Below, in pieces: positions 11,877-38,975 of a stretch of 64,000 nt of DNA; within the stretch, counting starts at the first letter, position 1; each line of letters begins with the position of its first letter. Source of the stretch: Candidatus Latescibacterota bacterium (GTDB lineage Bacteria > Latescibacterota > UBA2968 > UBA8231); NCBI GenBank assembly GCA_965223905.1, contig CBDCXV010000011.1:1792001-1856000 (forward strand), read 5' to 3'. The notes beneath the pieces are model-generated. The model saw nothing but the letters and a program-made list of their open reading frames with translations. It ran no database searches and was not told where the DNA came from. The translations under genes and the position numbers were made by a program.

Positions 11877-12365
11877 ATGCGCTACGCCTATCCTTGCAGT
11901 ATCGTCCGCGATGAGGAAGAAGAACGAGCGACTGGGAGGGAAGCCTACAACGTGACCTTCCCGGATGTATACGGGGCCAACACAGGCGGATGGTCACGGG
12001 AAGATGCCCTGGAGTTGGCCGAGGATTGCCTGGGGATTGCCTTGGGCATGTACGTCAAGGCCCGTGAAGACATCCCTGCTCCCAGCCCCCCGGCAGATGG
12101 TCAGGTGCTGATCTCCGTGGCGCCCATCGTCGCAGCGAAGCTGGCCCTTTATGCGGCGATGCGGGAACAAGGCATTACCGACGCCGCCCTTGCCGTCCGG
12201 CTGGGCCTGCAAGACAACGCAGTTCGCCGGCTTCTCGATCCGGGGCATCGATCTCACATTACTTCGGTCGAGAAGGCCCTCCGAGCAGTTGGGCGCTCCC
12301 TGGTGGTGGAGGATAGGGCCGCGGTCCAGTATCCTGAATCCGCTGTCGCCGTGACGTCGACCTGA
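11877..12365 (+). CDS. hicB: Type II antitoxin HicB family with C-terminal HTH
   Basis: MRYAYP, YNVTFPDV.GANTGG..REDAL, IPAPS, AAKLALYAAMREQG...VRRLLDP.HRS. Confidence 0.9.
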   Translation: MRYAYPCSIVRDEEEERATGREAYNVTFPDVYGANTGGWSREDALELAEDCLGIALGMYVKAREDIPAPSPPADGQVLISVAPIVAAKLALYAAMREQGITDAALAVRLGLQDNAVRRLLDPGHRSHITSVEKALRAVGRSLVVEDRAAVQYPESAVAVTST

Positions 12366-13367: not shown

Positions 13368-14747
13368 TCAGGACGGCCCCTGATCCTGGCGGCGCTGCCG
13401 CTTCTCCTGCATCTCGCGGGCGAGCCGCTCGAGGTTGGCGGCCGTGCTCGGCCTCGGGGCCTCCTCCCGCTCCCCCGACGGCTCCGTTTCCTCGACCTCC
13501 TCGCGCTGGTGGAACCCGAAACGGGCAGGGATGTCGCGGCGCTGGATGCGCCCGAGGACGGAGGCCAGCTCCTTGAGGCTGGCGGCGTTGTGGGCCGGGG
13601 CGAACAGATCGATGTGCGGCAGGGCGGCGCGCATGCCGCGGGTGTCGGGGCGGTACTCCTCGGAGCCGAGCAGCGGGTTGAGCCAGATCACCGCCAGGGA
13701 GCGGCGGTGGATGTCGCGCATGGCATCGCGCAACAGGTCGATGTCGCCGGTGTCCCAGCCGTCGCTCAGCAGGATGACCGCGGTCTGGTGGTCGAGCAAG
13801 CTGTCGCCGAATCCGTCGAGGAACGTCTGCAGGGAGGCGCCGATGCGCGTGCCCCCCGACCACTGCGGCACCTCCCGGGAGAGCGCGGCCAGCACCTCGT
13901 CGAGGTCCTCGTTGGCCAGGGTGTCGGTGACCCGCCGCAGGGAGGTGCTGAAGACGAAGGTCTCGACGCGCCGGCAGGCGAGCTGGAAGGCGTAGACGAA
14001 CTGGATGAGGAAGCTGCTGTAGAGGTCCATCGAGCGGCTGACGTCGCACAGCAGCACCAGCTTCAGGCGCCGGCGGCGGCGCTGCCTGAAGCTGAGATCG
14101 ACGAGCTCGCCGCCGCGGCGGAGATTGCGCCTGAGGGTGCGCCGCAGGTCGAGGCGGCCGCGGCGGGAGCTGTCGCGGTAGCGGCGGTTGAAGCGCCTGG
14201 CGAGGATCCGGGAGATCAGGGTGACCAGATGGCCGATCTCGTCGAGCTCGTCGGCGCGGAAGCCGGCAAAGTCCCGCCGGGCCATCACTTCGAAGGGGCT
14301 GTACCCGGCGGCCGGCTCCTCGTCGCCGGTCTTCTTCTCCCCCTTGAGCCAGGCGGTGACCGCCCTCAGCGCCGGCTGCTGTTCCGGTGCGCACGGATGG
14401 CGGATCTCCCTGTCCTCCTCCTCCTCTTCCCGCGCCCCCTGCCCCCGCAGAAGCTCGCCGGCGCGGTCCCAGACCTTCCAGTAGGAATCGAAAACCGAGT
14501 CGAAGATCTCCTGCTCCGGGCGGCTCTTGGCCAGGCAGGTCCTGAGCGCTTCGTAGAAATGCTGCCCGGTTCCGAGGTCGATTCGCTCCAGGGCGAGCAG
14601 GGCGTCGGCCGCCTCCGCCGCCCCCGGGCCGGCTCCCTCGCGGCGCAGCAGCCGGCAGAAGCCGACGACGTTGGCGCTCAGCTCCCCGCGCAGGGCGAGG
14701 TCCTCCGGTCCGGAAAATCCGCGGCCGTTCGAAGGTTCAGCGGCCAC
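13368..14747 (-). CDS. VWA domain protein, CoxE-like
   Basis: GRLDLRRTLRRNL..GGE, LCDVSRSM (MIDAS), VETFVFST, WSGGTRIG, LSDGWD, WLNPL. Confidence 0.9.
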   Translation of the reverse strand: MAAEPSNGRGFSGPEDLALRGELSANVVGFCRLLRREGAGPGAAEAADALLALERIDLGTGQHFYEALRTCLAKSRPEQEIFDSVFDSYWKVWDRAGELLRGQGAREEEEEDREIRHPCAPEQQPALRAVTAWLKGEKKTGDEEPAAGYSPFEVMARRDFAGFRADELDEIGHLVTLISRILARRFNRRYRDSSRRGRLDLRRTLRRNLRRGGELVDLSFRQRRRRRLKLVLLCDVSRSMDLYSSFLIQFVYAFQLACRRVETFVFSTSLRRVTDTLANEDLDEVLAALSREVPQWSGGTRIGASLQTFLDGFGDSLLDHQTAVILLSDGWDTGDIDLLRDAMRDIHRRSLAVIWLNPLLGSEEYRPDTRGMRAALPHIDLFAPAHNAASLKELASVLGRIQRRDIPARFGFHQREEVEETEPSGEREEAPRPSTAANLERLAREMQEKRQRRQDQGPS

Positions 14748-15687
14748 CGGCGGTCCTCGCCGCGGCCGGCCCCTCCTGAGCCTGCTCCGTTCCGGGAGGG
14801 GCCTTGGCGCGGATGCCGAGCTCTTCGAGGAACTCGGGAAGGGACTGCTGCATCTGGCGCACGTCCGTCCAGTCCTTGAACACCACCCCGAGGGTCTCCT
14901 CGACGATCCCGGGGTCGAGGTGGTTGCGGTGCAGGGCGACCAGGGCCTTGGCCCAGTCCAGGGTCTCGGCGACGCCGGGCACCTTCTCCAGCTTCTGCCG
15001 GCGCACCAGCGCCATGAAGCGGCAGATCTGGTCGGCGAGCTGCGCGTCGAGACCGTCGACCTTGCCGCGCACGATCGCCAGCTCCTTGTCGAACCCGGGG
15101 TAGTCGATCCACAGGTAGAGGCAGCGCCGGCGGATGGCGTCGGACAGCTCTCGGGTGCGGTTGGAGGTGATGACCACGTGCGGGATGTGGGTCGCGGCGA
15201 TGGTGCCGACCTCGGGGATCGAGATCTGCCAGTCGGAGAGCACCTCGAGCAGGAACGACTCGAACTCCTCGTCGGCGCGGTCGAGCTCGTCTATCAGCAG
15301 CACCGGCGGCCGGTGGTGGGTGATCGCCTCGAGCAGGGGCCGCTTGAGCAGGAAGGCCTCGCTGAAGATGTGGGACTGGCGCTCGTCGAGGCTGCGCTCC
15401 CCCCCTTCTTCGAGACGGATCTGGAGCAGCTGGCGCTGGTAGTTCCACTCGTACAGGGCGGTGCTGGTGTCGAGTCCCTCGTAGCACTGCAGACGGATCA
15501 GGTCGGTGTCGAGGGCCCGCGCCATCACCTTGGCGATCTCCGTCTTGCCTACGCCTGCCGGCCCCTCGACGAGGAGCGGCTTGTTCAGGGTTCGCGCCAG
15601 GTGAAGGGACATGGCGATGGCGGGATCGGCGACGTACTGCTGCTCGCGCAGCATCTTCTCGAGGCGCTCGGTTTCGGGATTCGCCAT
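14737..15687 (-). CDS. MoxR family AAA+ ATPase, CoxD-like
   Basis: PLLVEGPAGVGKTE, RLQCYEGLD...ALYEWNYQRQLL, LLIDELDRADEEFE, ELSDAIRRRC. Start taken at MANPETE. Confidence 0.9.
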   Translation of the reverse strand: MANPETERLEKMLREQQYVADPAIAMSLHLARTLNKPLLVEGPAGVGKTEIAKVMARALDTDLIRLQCYEGLDTSTALYEWNYQRQLLQIRLEEGGERSLDERQSHIFSEAFLLKRPLLEAITHHRPPVLLIDELDRADEEFESFLLEVLSDWQISIPEVGTIAATHIPHVVITSNRTRELSDAIRRRCLYLWIDYPGFDKELAIVRGKVDGLDAQLADQICRFMALVRRQKLEKVPGVAETLDWAKALVALHRNHLDPGIVEETLGVVFKDWTDVRQMQQSLPEFLEELGIRAKAPPGTEQAQEGPAAARTAGGR

Positions 15688-16017
15688 CGGCTTTCGTCGG
15701 CAGGTGGGGGAACCGGGATGGATGGGGATCCGTCTAGGCGGAACGGCCACTGCCCGGGTTGGACGGACGCCGCGGGTGCGCCTCGACGGGCCTAATATGC
15801 CTCCCCCAGGATGGGGTCGCAAACGGATTGCCGCCCCGGGGGCAGTCCGTATATTCCTGTCCTTTCTCAACTTAGCAGCCCGGATGGTTTATTCGACGGG
15901 CACCCGGGAGGTCGCGAAACCGATGAACCACCAGGGGGAGAATCACCGATTCCACGCCGCGGCCAGCAGGTTCGCGGCGAGCCGACCTCGACATACTGTT
16001 CATCCCTTTACCTCGGC

Positions 16018-17061
16018 ATGAGCTCGCACCCCCATCGCGGCCCTGTGCACGATCTCTTCGGCCGTCCGCTCGAAAGTCTGCGCCTCTCCGTCATCGACCG
16101 CTGCGACCTGCGCTGCGCCTACTGCATGCCGGAGGAGGACTACGCCTGGCTGCCCAAGGAGGACATCCTCTCCTTCGAGGAGATTGAGCGCACCGTCGAC
16201 GCCTTCGGCGAGCTGGGGGTGCGCAAGGTCCGCCTCACCGGCGGGGAACCACTCCTGCGCGGCGGCCTCGTCGATCTCGTCGCCCGCCTGGCCCGGCGTC
16301 CCGCGGTCGAGGACCTGGCAATGACGACGAACGCCACGCAGCTTGCCAAATGGGCCGAGCCGCTGCACCAGGCAGGGCTGAGCCGGGTAACGGTCAGTCT
16401 CGACACCCTCAACCCCGCCCGTTTCGAAACCCTGACCCGGCGCGTGGTCCTCGACCGCGTGCTCACCGGCATCCGCGAGGCTGTCCGCGTCGCCTTCTCC
16501 GACGTCAAGATCAACACCGTCATCATGCGGGGGTTCAACGACGACGAGCTCGTCGACCTGATCGAGTTCGGCAAGGAGGTCGGGGCCGAGGTCCGCTTCA
16601 TCGAGTACATGGACGTCGGCGGGGCCACCCTCTGGTCGATGGAGCGGGTCTTCTCCAAGGCGGACATTCTCGCGCGGCTCGAGGGGCACTACGGCGCCGT
16701 CGAGGCGGCCCCGGGCCGGGGGGCCGCGCCTGCCGAGCGCTTCCTCCTGCCCGACGGCACCTGTTTCGGCATCATCGCCTCCACCACGGAGCCGTTCTGC
16801 GCCACCTGCGACCGCAGCCGCGTCACCGCCGACGGCATGTGGTACCTCTGCCTGTACGCCAACGAAGGGTACAACCTGCGCGAGTGGCTGCGGGACGGGC
16901 TGACGCACCAGGATCTGATCGCACAGATCCGCCGTGTCTGGGAAGGCCGCAGGGACCGCGGCGCCGAGGAGCGTCTGAATGAACCGACGCGGGGGGCGCT
17001 CTACCACGTCGAAGAGCTGAAGGTCGACCCGCATCGCGAGATGCACACCCGGGGCGGATGA
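16018..17061 (+). CDS. moaA: GTP 3',8-cyclase MoaA
   Basis: Radical SAM CDLRCAYC, RLTGGEPLLR, FCATCDRSR...LCL and C-terminal GG. Confidence 0.95.
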   Translation: MSSHPHRGPVHDLFGRPLESLRLSVIDRCDLRCAYCMPEEDYAWLPKEDILSFEEIERTVDAFGELGVRKVRLTGGEPLLRGGLVDLVARLARRPAVEDLAMTTNATQLAKWAEPLHQAGLSRVTVSLDTLNPARFETLTRRVVLDRVLTGIREAVRVAFSDVKINTVIMRGFNDDELVDLIEFGKEVGAEVRFIEYMDVGGATLWSMERVFSKADILARLEGHYGAVEAAPGRGAAPAERFLLPDGTCFGIIASTTEPFCATCDRSRVTADGMWYLCLYANEGYNLREWLRDGLTHQDLIAQIRRVWEGRRDRGAEERLNEPTRGALYHVEELKVDPHREMHTRGG

Positions 17062-17186
17062 CGGCGCTCTGTGGGACGTTGGACTTTCAATGTGTGACGC
17101 GCCTCGGATTGCCGTTCGCCTGAGGGCGAACGGCCACGGATTCCGACCGATGACGGCGCTCTGTGAGGCGTTGGGAATTCCAGTGG
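17057..17186 (+). repeat. Imperfect ~35-bp direct repeat (17057, 17149) bracketing a perfect hairpin
   Basis: GATGACGGCGCTCTGTG is exact at both positions. Hairpin GCCGTTCGCC-tgag-GGCGAACGGC at 17111-17134. Confidence 0.7.
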
Positions 17187-17351
17187 GATGGAGGGCTCAC
17201 CTCCCACCTCCACCCGCCGAACTGCTACGGAACCGGGGCCCGCTCCCGCGTTCCGGGACGTGATTTCCAGTGCAGGCGGGGTTTCGGTATTGCCCGGCGC
17301 CATGAAGCCCGCTCCCCTGGCGACGGCCATCCGCCGCTGACCTGTAACAAG

Positions 17352-19481
17352 ATGGAATACCCAGAAGCCAAGAAATTCCTCGACACCCTGCCCGACTGGG
17401 AGCGGGGACGCCCGCCTTCCGGTCCCCTGCACTACTACCTGCCGCGCACCCGGGCGCTGCTGCGGCGGCTGGGGAATCCGCAGAACGACTTCCGCTCGAT
17501 CATCGTCGGCGGGACCAACGGCAAGGGCACGGTTGCCAGCCTCCTCGACGCCCTGCTGCGCGCCGACGGCAGGACCGGGCTCTACACCTCCCCCCACCTG
17601 CACAGCCAGCGGGAGCGCATCCAGGTCGACGGGCGGCTGCTCAGCGCCGACGACTGGGCCGACGCGGTTACCTTCCTGTACGACGCGACCCGCCGCTTCG
17701 ACGCGGAGGGATTCGGCGGCTTCTCGAAATTCGAGGCGCTCACCGCGCTCGCCGCCCACCTGTTCTCGGCGGCCGGGGTGGACTACGCGCTGTTCGAGGT
17801 CGGTCTCGGGGGGCGCTACGACGCCACCAACGCCTGGGATCACGAGCTCTCGATGCTGACCAGCATCGCCGTCGACCACGCCGACGTCCTGGGGGAGGAC
17901 GTCCTGGAGATCGCCGCGGACAAGCTCTGCATCGTGCGGCCCGGGCGGCCGCTGTTCACCACCGATGCCCACGAGGCCGGGGTCGCCGGGCGAATCCGAC
18001 GCCACTGCGAGTCCGCGGGTGTGCCCCTTTACCTGGCTGGCGCAGGAGGTGTCCGCAGCACCGGGTCCCCCCAATGCGGCCCCGGGATGCCGTACCCGGC
18101 CTGCCCGCGGCCTGATGGTCCGCGTCCCGGCTCGTACCCGGCCAACGCCCGCCTGGCCCTGGCCGCGGCAGCCTTCCTGCTGGGGGACCGCCTCGTCCCC
18201 GCGGATGCGGAAGCGACGATCGCCCGGCACCAGTGGCCGGGCCGCTTCGAGGCGGTCGAGCGCGACTGCCGGCCGCTGGTCCTGCTCGACGGCGCTCACA
18301 ACCGGGCCGCGGCCGCCAGCCTCGCCGCGGACCTGCGGGCCCTGCATCCGAAGTGGAGCTTCGTCGTCGGGGTCGGGAGCGGGCACGACGCCGGCGCCGT
18401 CCTCGACTGCCTGGCGCCGCTGGCGGGGCAGGTGATCGCCACCTCCTCCGGCCACCCCAAGGCCCTGCCGCCCGAGGATCTGCTGAACCACCTCCCTGCA
18501 GAGGCTCCAGCAACCGTCGAGCCCTTGGCCCGGGCCTTCGAGGTCGCCGCCTCGGGCAAGCTGCCTGTCTGCGTCACCGGATCGCTGGCCCTGGTCGCGC
18601 GCGCCCGCGAGCACTTCCGTCTCCCGTGCGAAACCGAGGGGATCAGCGAAGAGGTCGCCCTCGAAAGCCTCGAGTGCCTCGAAATCGCCTGTCGGGCGCG
18701 CCGGCTCGAGTGCGAGAGGGTAACGGGCAACGCCAACGTCCTGCGGGTGGACGAGGCGGGAGGGCCGTTCTACTTCCTGCGCAACCGCCACCCGTTCAAC
18801 GACTACGCCGCGGCCAGGCTGGCCGAGGACAAGGGCTACCAGTACGAGCTGTTTGCCGCGGCCGGCCTGCCGGTCCCCTGCTCGATGCAGGTGTTCAACC
18901 CGTACGCCGACGACCGCTTTCACCGCTACAAGACCCACGGCAGCGTCGAAGAGATGCTCGACGACGTCGAAACGCGCATGCAGTATCCCCTGCTCATCAA
19001 GAAGCCGCGCGCCTCGGTCTCCCAGGGAGTCTACCTCGAGCGCGACCGCGAGGGGGCCGCGAGGCGCCTGGAAAGCCTGTTCACCGGCGGAGGTTTTCTC
19101 GACAACAGCCTGCTGATCCAGGCCTTCGTCGAGGGAGTGGAGTACCGCATCGTCGCCAGCGAAGCGGAGCTGCTGCTCGCCTACGAGAAGACCAGCGACG
19201 AGGTAGGCGGCGGTCTCAACCCCCTTCATCACGCCAGCGGGCGCGCCGTCAAGGTCGGGGACGAGCCGCTGCTGGCAGCGATGGCTGAGCTCACCCGGCG
19301 CGTCGCCGCGGTGATCCGGCTAGGGTTCTACGCCATCGACGTCATCGACGGCCCCGGGGGCCTGCGCATCATCGAGCTCAACCCCAACCCGTTCTGCTTC
19401 TTCTACAACCGCAGCAACGGGCGCGGCGACTTCGTCGCCATCTACGAACACCTCCTCGACAAGTACTTTCTCCGGACATGA
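17352..19481 (+). CDS. FolC-type folylpolyglutamate synthase (Mur ligase fold) fused to a C-terminal RimK-like ATP-grasp ligase
   Basis: N-part: VGGTNGKGT, GLYTSPHL..RERI, FEALT, EVGLGGRYDATN, WPGRFE, LDGAHN, VTGSL. C-part: DKGYQYELF..AGLPVP, YPLLIKKP.ASVSQGV, LIQAFVEG.EYRI, YAIDVI, IIELNPNP. Confidence 0.85.
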   Translation: MEYPEAKKFLDTLPDWERGRPPSGPLHYYLPRTRALLRRLGNPQNDFRSIIVGGTNGKGTVASLLDALLRADGRTGLYTSPHLHSQRERIQVDGRLLSADDWADAVTFLYDATRRFDAEGFGGFSKFEALTALAAHLFSAAGVDYALFEVGLGGRYDATNAWDHELSMLTSIAVDHADVLGEDVLEIAADKLCIVRPGRPLFTTDAHEAGVAGRIRRHCESAGVPLYLAGAGGVRSTGSPQCGPGMPYPACPRPDGPRPGSYPANARLALAAAAFLLGDRLVPADAEATIARHQWPGRFEAVERDCRPLVLLDGAHNRAAAASLAADLRALHPKWSFVVGVGSGHDAGAVLDCLAPLAGQVIATSSGHPKALPPEDLLNHLPAEAPATVEPLARAFEVAASGKLPVCVTGSLALVARAREHFRLPCETEGISEEVALESLECLEIACRARRLECERVTGNANVLRVDEAGGPFYFLRNRHPFNDYAAARLAEDKGYQYELFAAAGLPVPCSMQVFNPYADDRFHRYKTHGSVEEMLDDVETRMQYPLLIKKPRASVSQGVYLERDREGAARRLESLFTGGGFLDNSLLIQAFVEGVEYRIVASEAELLLAYEKTSDEVGGGLNPLHHASGRAVKVGDEPLLAAMAELTRRVAAVIRLGFYAIDVIDGPGGLRIIELNPNPFCFFYNRSNGRGDFVAIYEHLLDKYFLRT

Positions 19482-20632
19482 GCAAAAAGCGCGATATCGA
19501 GACCGACCTCATCCATTCGGGAGAGGGGGACAAGATCGAGGGCTCGGTGGTGCTGCCGGTGTTTCAGAGCGCCACCTACCTGTCGGGCGGGGAAACGGCG
19601 TACGAGGAGATCCGCTATCTGCGCCTCAACAACAGCCCCAATCACCGCGTCCTGCACGCCAAGCTCGCCGCGGTCTGCGGCGGCGAGGCCGCAATCGTCA
19701 CCTCTTCGGGGATGGCGGCGATCGCCGCGACCCTGATGGGGCTGCTGAAGGCGGGAGACCGCCTGCTGGCGCAGAGCTGCCTGTACGGGGGCACCCACAG
19801 CCTGTTCACCTGCGACCTTCCCGACTTCGGGCTGCAGGTGGATTTCATCGACGGCAACCGCCCCGACACCTGGGGCGAGGCGGCGACCCGGCGAACGCGC
19901 GCCATCTACGTCGAGACCATGGCCAACCCGCTGCTGGAAGTGGCCGATCTCGAAGCGGTGGTGGCTTTCGCGCGCGAGCGCGGCCTGATGTCCATCATCG
20001 ACAACACCTTCGGCACCCCGGTCAATTTCCGGTCGCTGCAACTGGGGTTCGACGTCGAGATTCACAGCGCCACCAAGTACCTCAACGGCCACTCCGACAT
20101 CGTCGCCGGCTGCGTCGTCGCCAACGGGGAGCTGATCTCCCGGATCGGGCGCCGGCTCAACCATCTCGGCGCAACCCTCGATCCGCACGCCTGTTTCCTG
20201 CTGCACCGGGGGATGAAGACGATGGCGCTGAGGGTGCGGCACCAGAACGCCTCGGCGTTGGCCCTAGCCGGGGCGCTCGAGCGCTGCGAGGCCGTGACGC
20301 AGGTGAACTACCCCGGGCTGGCCTCGCATCCCCAGCACGAGCGCGCGGCGCGGCTCTTCTCCGGCTGCGGCGGGGTCCTGAGCTTCGAGCTTTGCGGGGG
20401 AAGGCCGGCTGCGGAGAAGCTGCTGGAGCGGCTGCGGATACCGGCTTCGGCCCCCAGCCTCGGGGGCGTCGAGACCCTGATCACGCGGCCGGCAGCGACC
20501 TCGCACGCCGGCCTGTCGGAAGCGGAGCGGCAGACCCTGGGAATCGGCAGCGGCCTCGTCCGGGTGGCGGTCGGCATCGAGTCCGCGGCCGACCTGATCG
20601 CCGATTTCGAGCAGGGGCTGGCGGGGCTGTAG
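19478..20632 (+). CDS. PLP-dependent Cys/Met metabolism enzyme (cystathionine gamma-synthase/methionine gamma-lyase family)
   Basis: PVFQSATY, SSGMAAI, LYGGT, DNTF.TP, HSATKYLNGHSD, APSLGGVETL, RVAVGIE. ATGA overlap with the upstream gene. Confidence 0.9.
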   Translation: MSKKRDIETDLIHSGEGDKIEGSVVLPVFQSATYLSGGETAYEEIRYLRLNNSPNHRVLHAKLAAVCGGEAAIVTSSGMAAIAATLMGLLKAGDRLLAQSCLYGGTHSLFTCDLPDFGLQVDFIDGNRPDTWGEAATRRTRAIYVETMANPLLEVADLEAVVAFARERGLMSIIDNTFGTPVNFRSLQLGFDVEIHSATKYLNGHSDIVAGCVVANGELISRIGRRLNHLGATLDPHACFLLHRGMKTMALRVRHQNASALALAGALERCEAVTQVNYPGLASHPQHERAARLFSGCGGVLSFELCGGRPAAEKLLERLRIPASAPSLGGVETLITRPAATSHAGLSEAERQTLGIGSGLVRVAVGIESAADLIADFEQGLAGL

Positions 20633-20647: not shown

Positions 20648-21832
20648 TCAGGCTCGTTCCTCTTCACGGGAGGGACCTGCCTCCTCCCCCCGGGCCTGAA
20701 GGCCGCGGCCGGACGGCAGAAAGAGGGCGAGAACCGCGGTCGCGACCGGCAGGACGGCGAGCAGGGTCAGGGCCGACTCGACGCCGATCCGTTCGGCGAG
20801 GTAGCCGATCGGCGCCAGCGTCAGTCCCGCGATCCCCCAGCTGAACCCAAGAGGCAGACTCGAGGCCAGTCCGGAGCTTTTCGGCACCAGTTCCTGGGCC
20901 ATGGCGACCAGCAGCGAGTTGGAGGCCATCACCATGGCGCCGCCGATTGCCAGCATTCCGTAGGCGACGAGGCCGTCGCTGTGGAGATAGCCGTAGAGGG
21001 AGGGAGCCGCGGCCAGGATCGATCCCCAGATCAGCGGCTTTCTGTCGAGGCGGTCCCCGAGATAGCCGAACAGCAACGCCCCGGCGACCCCTGCGAGGTT
21101 GTACAGCGAGAGCGGTATTCCTCCTGCGACGAGGTCGAGCCCGCGCGCCTCGGACAGCACCGGCAGGTAGAACCCGAAGCCCAGCCCGGTAACCGAGCGC
21201 AGGATGACGACGACCGTCATCAACAGCAGGATCCGCTTCCTGCCCTGCAGGCTGGCGCGCAGCGAGGTCCGTTGCCCATGGACCACGTGAGGGTTGTCGA
21301 GAGGCACGAAACGCCAGATCAGCAGAACGAGCAGAAGCCCGGGAAGGCCGGCCGCGGGCAGCCACTCCAGGCCGATCTCGGTGGCGTACCAGGGGACCCA
21401 GAGCGGCGAGAAGCCGAGTCCGAGGGTGCCGCCGAACACGAACAGGGCGATGCCGAAGGAGCGCCTGTGGCCGCTGAGCTCGCCGGCGAGCGAGAACGCC
21501 TGGGGGTGGAACGCTGCGACCCCGAGGCCCCCGAGGCAGAGCACGACCAGCAGCGTCCCGTAGTTGGAGACGATCCCGAGCATCGGGGTGAACAGGCCGG
21601 CCATGAGCAGACCGGCCAGCACGAGGTAGCGCCGGCGCATGCCGTCGGCCCACACCCCCAGCAGCGGCTGCGACAGGCTGCACAGCGAGGTGATGGTGCC
21701 GAGAAAGCCTGCCGAGGTCAGGGAAATCCCGAGCCGGCTGATGACGAGCGGCAGCACCGGGGCCAGCATCTGGGCGTACGAGTCGACGCAGAAATGCCCG
21801 ACGGCGATGAGGAAGAGCATGCCCTTGCGCAC
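20648..21832 (-). CDS. MFS transporter (Fsr-like)
   Basis: GHFCVDSY...LPL, SLSQPLLG.WAD, GLGVAAFHP; about 12 TM segments. Confidence 0.85.
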   Translation of the reverse strand: MRKGMLFLIAVGHFCVDSYAQMLAPVLPLVISRLGISLTSAGFLGTITSLCSLSQPLLGVWADGMRRRYLVLAGLLMAGLFTPMLGIVSNYGTLLVVLCLGGLGVAAFHPQAFSLAGELSGHRRSFGIALFVFGGTLGLGFSPLWVPWYATEIGLEWLPAAGLPGLLLVLLIWRFVPLDNPHVVHGQRTSLRASLQGRKRILLLMTVVVILRSVTGLGFGFYLPVLSEARGLDLVAGGIPLSLYNLAGVAGALLFGYLGDRLDRKPLIWGSILAAAPSLYGYLHSDGLVAYGMLAIGGAMVMASNSLLVAMAQELVPKSSGLASSLPLGFSWGIAGLTLAPIGYLAERIGVESALTLLAVLPVATAVLALFLPSGRGLQARGEEAGPSREEERA

Positions 21833-21846
21833 GAGCGTTCCCCGAG

Positions 21847-23076
21847 TCAGGCCGCGGCGGGGTGCAGCTTCCGGTCAAGCCGCCGGCAGAGCCTGTACAG
21901 GCATGCGGTCCCGGCCAGGGAGAGCGCCGCCCCGGTGAAAAACGGAAGCCCGGTATCGATCTCCACCAGCAGGCCTCCCGCCAGGCCGCCGAGCGCCATC
22001 GCCGCGCTCCAGGCGAGGTGGCCGAGTCCGACGAGCCGGTTCTTCTGCGCGGCCGGGGCCACTTCGTCGATCAACCCCGGGACCAGCACCGAGACCGCCC
22101 AGGCGGTCGCCGCCAACCCCGTACCGAACAGGAACAGCCCGGTCAGGGAATCGGCCCGGAACCCCAGGCAGAGCGCGCAGGCGGGGATTCCGGCAGCCGA
22201 GACCAGCAGCGGCCGGGTACGTCCACAGCGGTCCCGCAACCAACCGGCGGCGACTTGGCAGACCGCGGCCGCAGCCAGGGACACCGCCCCGTACCAGGCC
22301 GCCACCGCGGCGCTGCCACTGACGCGAAACACCAGGAGGGGCAGCACCAGGATCGCCATGCCCCAGAAAGAGGTGATGCCCAGACGCATGCCGACGAGAA
22401 GGTGGACCTCGCGCTGCCGCAGCAAGGGGCGGTAGGCTCGCCACAGCGACAACTTCTCCGGCCTCCGGGAAGCCGGCCCGGAGATATCGGGGAGCAGCAG
22501 CACGGCGGCGAGGACCACTCCGGTCGCTCCGGCCGTCATGGCCGCGCCGATCTGCTGAAAGCTCCACAGCGGTTTCAACAGGCCGGTGCAGAGGCTGCCC
22601 GCAGAGCTGCCGAGGGTGTAGGTGAGGAAGAACAGGGCCCCTCCGAGACCGAGACGTTCCGGTCCGGCGGAGGCGATGAGGTAGCTCTGGCCGGCGGCGC
22701 TCATAGGTCCGGCGGCGATTCCGGCGAGAAGCACGAAGAAGGTCAGGATGCGGAAGTCGGTGCTCTGGAAAGCCAGGCCCGCGGCGATCGATCCGGCCAG
22801 TCCGACAAGCAGCATCGGCTTCAGTCCCAAAAGGTCGCACAGGCGGCCTCCGACCAGGGCGAAGATGCCGCCCAGCGCGAACATCAGGGTGCGCAGGTAT
22901 CCGGTGAACAGGGGTCTCGCGCCGACGTCGGCATCGACGTAGACCGGCAGCAGGGTGGCGAAGGGAGCGGCGGTGAAGTGGCTGAAAAAGGAGACGGCGC
23001 AGAGGACGGCGAAGGCACGGCTCGCGAGTCCGGGTGCGGTCGGCGGAGCCGTGCCTCGCACGTCCTGATCCGTCAC
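21847..23076 (-). CDS. MFS transporter
   Basis: Motif A-like GGRLCDLLGLK and GWLRDRCGRTR; about 12 TM segments. Confidence 0.8.
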   Translation of the reverse strand: MTDQDVRGTAPPTAPGLASRAFAVLCAVSFFSHFTAAPFATLLPVYVDADVGARPLFTGYLRTLMFALGGIFALVGGRLCDLLGLKPMLLVGLAGSIAAGLAFQSTDFRILTFFVLLAGIAAGPMSAAGQSYLIASAGPERLGLGGALFFLTYTLGSSAGSLCTGLLKPLWSFQQIGAAMTAGATGVVLAAVLLLPDISGPASRRPEKLSLWRAYRPLLRQREVHLLVGMRLGITSFWGMAILVLPLLVFRVSGSAAVAAWYGAVSLAAAAVCQVAAGWLRDRCGRTRPLLVSAAGIPACALCLGFRADSLTGLFLFGTGLAATAWAVSVLVPGLIDEVAPAAQKNRLVGLGHLAWSAAMALGGLAGGLLVEIDTGLPFFTGAALSLAGTACLYRLCRRLDRKLHPAAA

Positions 23077-38620: not shown

Positions 38621-38975
38621 GGGGGCGACATGGCTTCGACGGGGGCAGAGAGGTCGAGACAGCGTGCCGAGGTCCCCGACACCTCGTAAATCCCGGGAAC
38701 AACTTCAAGCGCCGACGATAACTCGTACGCTTTGGCTGCCTGAAAAGGCTGCCCGCGGGGGCTGGTGTAGCCTGCGACGCCGGCCCCTGCGACAAGACAG
38801 CAGGCTAGCGGACGGCGCTTTCGTTCACGGGCCGTTCGCGAAACCTGGTGAACTGGCCCCCTGCGGATCCTGTCAGCCGGAGCCACAGGGGGCGAGAATC
38901 AAACGCTGACTACGCACGTAGCGGTCTCGAAGGAACTGCTTTCGGACGCGGGTTCGATTCCCGCCGCCTCCACCA
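38621..38975 (+). ncRNA. ssrA: tmRNA (transfer-messenger RNA)
   Basis: 5' GGGGGCGACATGGCTTCGAC; tag ORF 38711-38743 ADDNSYALAA*; 3' GCGGGTTCGATTCCCGCCGCCTCCACCA with T-arm and Ala acceptor. Confidence 0.97.

Follow-up and report, generated by a model that had tools for sequence, protein, structure and literature searches.

Introduction

Tail length and linkage govern the retention of folates in the cell and their use by folate enzymes. To our knowledge, FolC is regarded as the only builder of these tails, and FolC enzymes add glutamates singly. Here we describe a gene from a 64,000-nucleotide stretch of DNA of Candidatus Latescibacterota bacterium (contig CBDCXV010000011.1, positions 1,792,001 to 1,856,000 of the forward strand; this whole stretch is called the window, and coordinates are counted from its first letter). 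The gene encodes, in a single reading frame, a FolC domain followed by a short ATP-grasp ligase domain (Table 1). From its conserved residues, we predict that this one chain has two ATP-dependent ligase sites, both intact, and that the first of them is the cell's FolC site.

The described systems closest to the second half are ATP-grasp ligases that modify terminal glutamates. ArgX/LysX and RimK extend a C-terminal glutamate by an amino acid, the substrate of RimK being the Glu-Glu tail of ribosomal protein S6, and MptN caps tetrahydrosarcinapterin with a terminal alpha-glutamate. In enzymes of the RimK, MptN and CofF type, an N-domain aids acceptor binding. MptN and CofF share the logic proposed here for the fusion, a gamma-glutamyl tail being capped via an alpha bond by a RimK-type ATP-grasp enzyme. 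However, they are separate proteins, not joined to the ligase that builds the tail. CofF is described, in the excerpted text of its source, as capping the gamma-glutamyl tail of F420 with a terminal alpha-glutamate (PMC8498797).

Other described proteins carry two ligases on one chain. In cyanophycin synthetase, ATP-grasp and Mur-type domains work in turn, which sets a precedent for such an arrangement. The ATP-grasp half of CphA1 (7lg5, 7wac) compares with that of the fusion at template modelling (TM) scores of 0.65-0.70 (query-normalised). However, the fusion has no CphA N-domain, its Mur-type half is a true FolC, and its domain order is reversed, the ATP-grasp part being C-terminal to the Mur-type part, as had been remarked in an earlier reading of the window made from the letters alone (the sequence-only reading). 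GshF (GshA + ATP-grasp, 3ln6) and MurC-Ddl (NF011171) likewise consist of a non-ATP-grasp ligase and a C-terminal ATP-grasp ligase working in one pathway, and the ATP-grasp domain of GshF is a fold match to the second half of the fusion. Their first domains and pathways are different, and there is no family-level sequence match. The sequence-only reading knew of no characterised enzyme with the present architecture; our literature search, with most subscription journals outside it, found no description of FolC + ATP-grasp and no paper using the name of the alpha-glutamyl folate enzyme of Escherichia coli.

A Fusion Gene Kept in One Class of Latescibacterota

From the ATG at 17352 to the TGA at 19479-19481, the gene runs through 709 codons without interruption. 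The sequence-only reading had recognized this single open reading frame (ORF), with FolC first and ATP-grasp second, and every motif that it quoted is present in the translation. In the FolC half, these are GTNGKGT (residues 54-60), TSPHL (79-83), EVGLGGRYDATN (149-160), WPGR (295-298), DGAHN (313-317), and TGSL (409-412). In the ATP-grasp half, they are DK (493-494), PLLIKKPRASVSQGV (546-560), IQAFVEGVEYR (589-599), ID (662-663), and ELNPNP (675-680). Its assignment of the two halves was also right, since profile searches recover FolC (TIGR01499) and a RimK-type domain (PF08443, TIGR00768). An alternative in-frame GTG at 17163 would give a protein of 772 residues instead of 709; because the N-termini of 29 aligned relatives (MDYF...) coincide with the ATG at 17352, the latter is the likely start.

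A word-index search returned at least 120 relatives of 667-768 residues, 52-91% identical to the fusion and nearly all covering 99-100% of it. In their source records they are called “hypothetical protein,” “cyanophycin synthetase” (two of them), or “dihydrofolate synthase/folylpolyglutamate synthase.” When genomes were scanned with the C-terminal domain, 80 related loci emerged, nearly all in metagenome-assembled genomes titled Latescibacterota or Gemmatimonadota, the closest being 93% identical. Thus far, the data bear directly on the possibility that the fusion is an assembly or annotation artefact covering what are really two genes. A single representative, P0125 (264 residues, 53% identical), may represent a split version of the gene or just a fragment of it. 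Against an artefact, in 80/80 loci the FolC part immediately precedes the ATP-grasp part and shares with it one open frame without a stop, so that relatives do not encode two separate genes. In addition, the junction is crossed by public contigs that stem from three studies (four sequencing runs) and cover at least 18272-19576, with zero inserted or deleted letters across 17000-19900; this answers the call of the sequence-only reading for a check of the junction. The listed domain matches in the phylum lie in open frames of about 690 residues or more, with the exceptions of one of 529 residues and one of 674 residues that starts at contig base 2. We therefore give the artefact a negligible probability: the fusion is far beyond chance, and the two-gene explanation is refuted for this genome and its class.

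The taxonomic spread, which the same reading had proposed to establish, is wide within narrow borders. The ATP-grasp domain occurs in 123 of 168 genomes of Latescibacterota, an uncultured phylum (E <= 1e-10), with one copy each, and the fusion is confined to three families of one class (70/75 genomes of family f1, 21/22 of f3 and 31/31 of f4, as compared with 0/3 of f2 and none of f5-f14). The FolC profile itself matches 161 of the 168 genomes. In the three fusion families there is usually one FolC match, in a frame of about 700 residues and at 257-301 bits, whereas the unfused FolCs of the other families occupy frames of 425-510 residues and score 323-411 bits. Two FolC-profile matches each were found in G043, G096, and G137. 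As a side observation, two genomes of one genus, G165 (C361:45-1232) and G166 (C5:974-2191), have a second, canonical FolC of about 365 bits beside the fusion, which may be contamination or a copy retained from an ancestor.

The FolC Half

The first half passes the FolC profile TIGR01499 with 256.1 bits (cut-off 162.65), residues 30-420 matching profile positions 1-398 of 400, and Pfam finds a Mur_ligase_C domain in the protein. It scores 136.3 bits with the E. coli-type FolC equivalog NF008101, under the cut-off of 360. It aligns end to end with the solved FolC/folylpolyglutamate synthase (FPGS) enzymes of Thermotoga maritima, Lactobacillus casei and E. coli, and it shares with known FolC structures (1w78, 1o5z, 1fgs, 2vos) the P-loop, the “EKAGI” lysine, and DGAHN; it differs from these enzymes in the added 277-residue ligase domain. 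In 30 aligned fusions, G54, N56, G57, K58, K191, D313, G314, H316, and N317 are invariant. K191 aligns with the lysine of “EKAGI”/“HKAGI” in solved FolC/FPGS, which we take to be the lysine carbamylated in FolC enzymes.

A search of the genome (7.9 Mb, 93.6% complete) with the FolC profile, also suggested by the sequence-only reading, shows that the fusion is the sole FolC. The second-best match, at 33 bits, is MurE, adjoining MurF, and was discarded as a second FolC. The same genome has folP (294 bits). Because the fusion is the sole FolC, aligns over its full length and keeps the P-loop, the “EKAGI” lysine and DGAHN, its first half very probably carries the housekeeping FolC function, as far as sequence can tell. 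Separately, the folP locus L083 (G000:C2:319013-319789) lies in an open frame of 549 residues, about twice the length of the dihydropteroate synthase (DHPS) profile, and may be fused to another folate enzyme.

The ATP-Grasp Half

The second half is a member of the ATP-grasp ligases. It passes the Pfam RimK profile PF08443 barely (21.6 bits, cut-off 21; residues 532-680). With the RimK family profile TIGR00768 it reaches 36.2 bits, for a cut-off of 143.4, residues 482-680 matching profile positions 76-255 alone; with cyanophycin synthetase TIGR02068 it reaches 20.2 bits against a cut-off of 850, the ATP-grasp part matching profile positions 236-321. A profile search against the PDB gave ArgX (8.8e-13) and RimK (8.9e-12), followed by Ddl. 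The model of the domain has a predicted local distance difference test score (pLDDT) of 95.3 and shows a complete ATP-grasp fold, for which the best Foldseek matches are ArgX, the CphA1 G domain, RimK, LysX, GshF, and Ddl, with a probability of 1.00 for ArgX, RimK, LysX, and Ddl. RimK/LysX/ArgX (4iwx, 5zct, 3vpb, 3vpd) are thus the best matches by both profile and fold, with the lysine, Glu-x-Arg, Asp...Glu-x-Asn, and the ATP-grasp core in common. In contrast to them, the fusion lacks profile positions 1-75, which make up the N-domain, and its partner is FolC instead of S6 or LysW.

Ten columns of the domain are invariant in a comparison with 41 stand-alone relatives (see below): K61, P113, K117, E164, R166, Y178, D230, E242, N244, and P247 in domain numbering, which correspond to K494, P546, K550, E597, R599, Y611, D663, E675, N677, and P680 in the protein. 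An invariance test on 81 sequences (the 80 loci and the window) covered nine of these ten columns, P546 being left out, and all nine are invariant in 81/81. Read against the RimK alignment, the ten columns are the nucleotide and Mg set of ATP-grasp enzymes. The sequence-only reading had allowed for catalytic residues to be missing from a structural model; instead, the fold is complete and the ATP/Mg residues are kept. Furthermore, conservation of the ATP-grasp half exceeds that of the FolC half in 76/80 loci (median identity 55.8% vs. 51.7%). Both halves therefore look catalytically competent, judging by their residues.

These observations also decide the standing of an explanation in which the ATP-grasp domain has lost its ligase function and now serves FolC as an ATP sensor, a regulator or a means of oligomerisation. 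The lack of a standard N-domain and the narrow pass of PF08443 would fit such a module; the invariance of every ATP/Mg and acyl-phosphate residue checked, the complete fold and the retention of the same residues by stand-alone relatives make it improbable.

The scores below the RimK and cyanophycin synthetase cut-offs, together with the lack of a match of the fusion protein to MptN (NF040720) or CofF (TIGR04443) at E <= 0.1 in NCBIfam, lead us to class the ATP-grasp half, from sequence profiles, as a separate, uncharacterised short subfamily. Similar clusters in a protein atlas are labelled “YheC/YheD” or “ATP-grasp domain-containing protein.” The same scores bear on the idea that the fusion is a permuted polymerase, similar to cyanophycin synthetase, that makes a storage polymer and not folate. 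It could draw on the strong fold match to the CphA1 G domain and on the source names of the two relatives mentioned above. It is nevertheless very improbable, given the score with TIGR02068, the domain order, reversed relative to the N-G-M arrangement of cyanophycin synthetase, the missing CphA N-domain, and the Mur-type half that passes the FolC cut-off and is the sole FolC in a folP-bearing genome.

The Ddl matches raise another scenario, that of an ATP-grasp half making a peptide, for example a glutamyl dipeptide, which FolC would then attach, in the way that Ddl feeds Mur ligases. The domain order is the same as that of MurC-Ddl NF011171, which relatives match weakly, and Ddl structures are among the fold matches. 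On the other hand, ArgX/LysX/RimK outrank Ddl in both sequence profile and fold, and the established addition of single glutamates by FolC speaks against the attachment of a peptide; we consider this scenario quite improbable.

The two halves are joined by a short linker. In the full-length model (pLDDT 84.8, predicted TM score 0.67), residues 422-432 have no secondary structure and pLDDT falls below 50 at residues 428-431. Domain-domain docking of the two halves, run without controls, gave a score of 0.00.

A Possible Second Ligase for the Folate Tail

We tentatively favor a reading of the fusion as a bifunctional folate-tail ligase, the second site of which adds an amino acid, probably an alpha-linked glutamate. 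The FolC site would work as in other FolC enzymes, using ATP to activate either the carboxylate of pteroate or the terminal glutamate's gamma-carboxylate, to which L-glutamate would then be added. The second site would act independently, as an ATP-dependent carboxylate-amine ligase of the kind seen in RimK, LysX, MptN, and CofF, and would be carried on a flexible linker of about 12 residues. Because a terminal glutamate is where each of the nearest characterised enzymes attaches an amino acid, this site may share the same glutamyl tail. The carboxylate that it activates would be a free one, in all likelihood the alpha-carboxylate on the last glutamate, and the addition of one amino acid or several, L-glutamate being the likeliest, would yield a capped tail or a mixed gamma/alpha tail. 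In favor of this reading, the FolC half is the sole FolC of the genome, the second half is the better conserved of the two and has invariant ATP/Mg residues, and stand-alone relatives of it match MptN and CofF weakly. The narrower assignment of the C-terminal domain as a folylpolyglutamate alpha-ligase, or as an enzyme capping the tail with another amino acid, is one that we hold with rather more reserve. We know of no gene assigned to the alpha-glutamyl folate ligase activity of E. coli. Alpha-linked glutamates in E. coli folates have been reported (Ferone et al., 1986, as cited in the excerpted text of PMC9679996).

Several observations weigh against the proposal of a bifunctional folate-tail ligase. 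The domain fails membership of the RimK family (TIGR00768), with a score under the cut-off and an unmatched N-domain, and it finds neither MptN nor CofF in the search described above. In the model, the usual Rossmann-like N-domain is replaced by a small helix and three strands. Since all carriers belong to one class, the many copies of the fusion reflect one ancestral evolutionary event and are not independent support. Across the 80 fusion loci, there is no universal partner gene. Finally, no FolC or folate gene recurs beside stand-alone relatives of the ATP-grasp half in 80 metagenome loci, a sample from which the closer group (32-36% identity, e.g., P0129 and P0133) was left out; hence the short ATP-grasp family as a whole is not dedicated to folate.

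These stand-alone relatives come from a HMMER search with residues 434-709, exhaustive over 1.84 billion representatives, that gave 363 proteins at E <= 0.001, of which 179 pass E <= 1e-10. Fragments of fusions aside, they are stand-alone proteins of about 255-320 residues, with whole-domain coverage and 21-36% identity, and in the alignment they retain the same ATP-grasp residues. One hit, P0210 (2555 residues), is an RTX-repeat protein and was rejected as a compositional false match. The relatives match MptN/CofF weakly (25-59 bits for cut-offs of 300-350). A tblastn search of one of them against plasmids gave no match. The commonest neighbors in the metagenome loci are a pair of HTH_3 and Peptidase_M78 genes (16/80 loci), a gene for a 287-residue protein (11 loci), and assorted housekeeping genes. 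In L116, L124, L126, L128, L151, and L159, for example, the stand-alone gene lies just downstream of HTH_3 + Peptidase_M78 (ImmA/IrrE-like), and pairs of this kind are typical of mobile or stress-switch modules.

The contexts of the stand-alone genes would fit a different explanation, in which the ATP-grasp half is an active ligase for something other than folate (a free amino-acid dipeptide, another small acid or a protein C-terminus) and is fused to FolC only for co-expression or for common use of glutamate. These contexts are unrelated, as illustrated by the HTH_3 + Peptidase_M78 pair upstream. The weak match of relative P0150 to LdmS (22.7 bits) also echoes the Cys/Met pyridoxal 5'-phosphate (PLP) enzyme gene next to the fusion, LdmS being, in the excerpted text of its source, an L-amino-acid ligase of sulfur amino-acid metabolism (PMC9486568). 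This PLP neighbor is, however, missing from half of the loci. Ribosomal protein S6, the RimK substrate, ends here with ...PAESG and is without the Glu-Glu tail. Moreover, the persistence of a fusion in 123 genomes, with better conservation of its second domain, is usually the mark of a common pathway. On these grounds, a non-folate ligase seems somewhat unlikely.

Returning to the bifunctional folate-tail ligase, a sole FolC permanently joined, throughout a class, to a second, apparently intact ligase predicts either new cofactor chemistry or new regulation of tail synthesis. If the proposal is true, the fusion would offer the first access at gene level to folate tails other than gamma-linked ones, and a whole class of Latescibacterota would use a structurally distinct folate cofactor. 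The prediction can be examined in one expressible protein of 709 residues. In any case, the comparison draws attention to short ATP-grasp ligases as a widespread and unstudied family, and it corrects the database names “cyanophycin synthetase” and plain “FolC” given to these proteins.

Genomic Neighborhood

TABLE 1. Features of the fusion gene and its surroundings, in window coordinates.
Feature	Position	Strand	Basis or remark
Fusion gene, FolC-ATP-grasp, 709 aa	17352..19481	+	stop-free translation, TGA 19479-19481
FolC domain (dihydrofolate synthase / folylpolyglutamate synthase), aa 30-420	17439..18611	+	TIGR01499
P-loop GTNGKGT	17511-17531	+	within FolC domain
K191 codon	17922-17924	+	within FolC domain
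Linker, aa 421-432, ~12 residues	18612..18647	+	full-length model
Short RimK/LysX-like ATP-grasp ligase domain, 277 aa, aa 433-709	18648..19478	+	PF08443, TIGR00768, fold
Cys/Met-metabolism PLP enzyme gene	19478..20632	+	PF01053 401 bits
Spacer between moaA and fusion, 290 nt	17062..17351	.	26-nt direct repeat and 10-bp hairpin
moaA (GTP 3',8-cyclase)	15811..17061	+	TIGR02666 350.7 bits, cut-off 284
CoxD-like AAA gene	14737-15870	-	upstream of moaA, divergent
CoxE-like VWA gene	13368-14747	-	upstream of moaA, divergent

The neighbors named in the sequence-only reading are those it described. The gene upstream passes the moaA profile, and the PLP enzyme gene overlaps the end of the fusion, its ATG sharing ATGA with the TGA of the fusion. 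The PLP enzyme falls under every NCBIfam equivalog cut-off, the best being methionine gamma-lyase (340.6 bits vs. 549.7). Three synteny types occur among the 80 loci. moaA is upstream of the fusion in 50 of them, and 40 have a PLP gene in the flank (39 downstream on the same strand, 28 of these starting within about 51 nt of the fusion end, and one upstream on the opposite strand). The suggestion that the PLP enzyme supplies a substrate is not supported, as it adjoins the fusion only in these 40 loci and as the fusion stands alone, between opposite-strand genes, in about 17. moaA and the PLP gene are a matter of lineage synteny and are not obligate partners. Methionine synthesis uses methyl-folate polyglutamates, and for this reason a homocysteine-forming or related PLP enzyme near a FolC makes sense without any supply of substrate.

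Beyond moaA lie the two Cox genes, to which XdhC is added in relatives. CoxD/CoxE/XdhC form a Mo-enzyme maturation cluster, and its adjacency accounts for the presence of moaA. Two plus-strand ORFs in this region, 13509-14879 and 14671-15795, were set aside as conserved neighbors, being antisense shadows of the minus-strand genes.

The spacer between moaA and the fusion is long here, compared with 3-90 nt in 47/50 relatives. It contains a perfect 10-bp hairpin (17111-17134) flanked by a direct repeat whose two copies, at 17057-17082 and at 17149-17174, are 92% identical; the copy at 17057-17082 overlaps the moaA stop. The repeat and the hairpin look like a small insertion or duplication. No riboswitch or other RNA reached an Rfam gathering score in this spacer or upstream of moaA, where matches at E <= 1 were at chance level.

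Elsewhere in the window, an ORF at 11877-12365 (+) has a match to HicB-like antitoxins that stays below threshold (23.5 bits, cut-off 27). Downstream of the locus, two tandem MFS transporter genes (20648-23076, minus strand) are kept beside it in 23 and 18 of the 80 relatives. A tmRNA gene is found at 38621-38975 (+) (Rfam RF00023, 191 bits).

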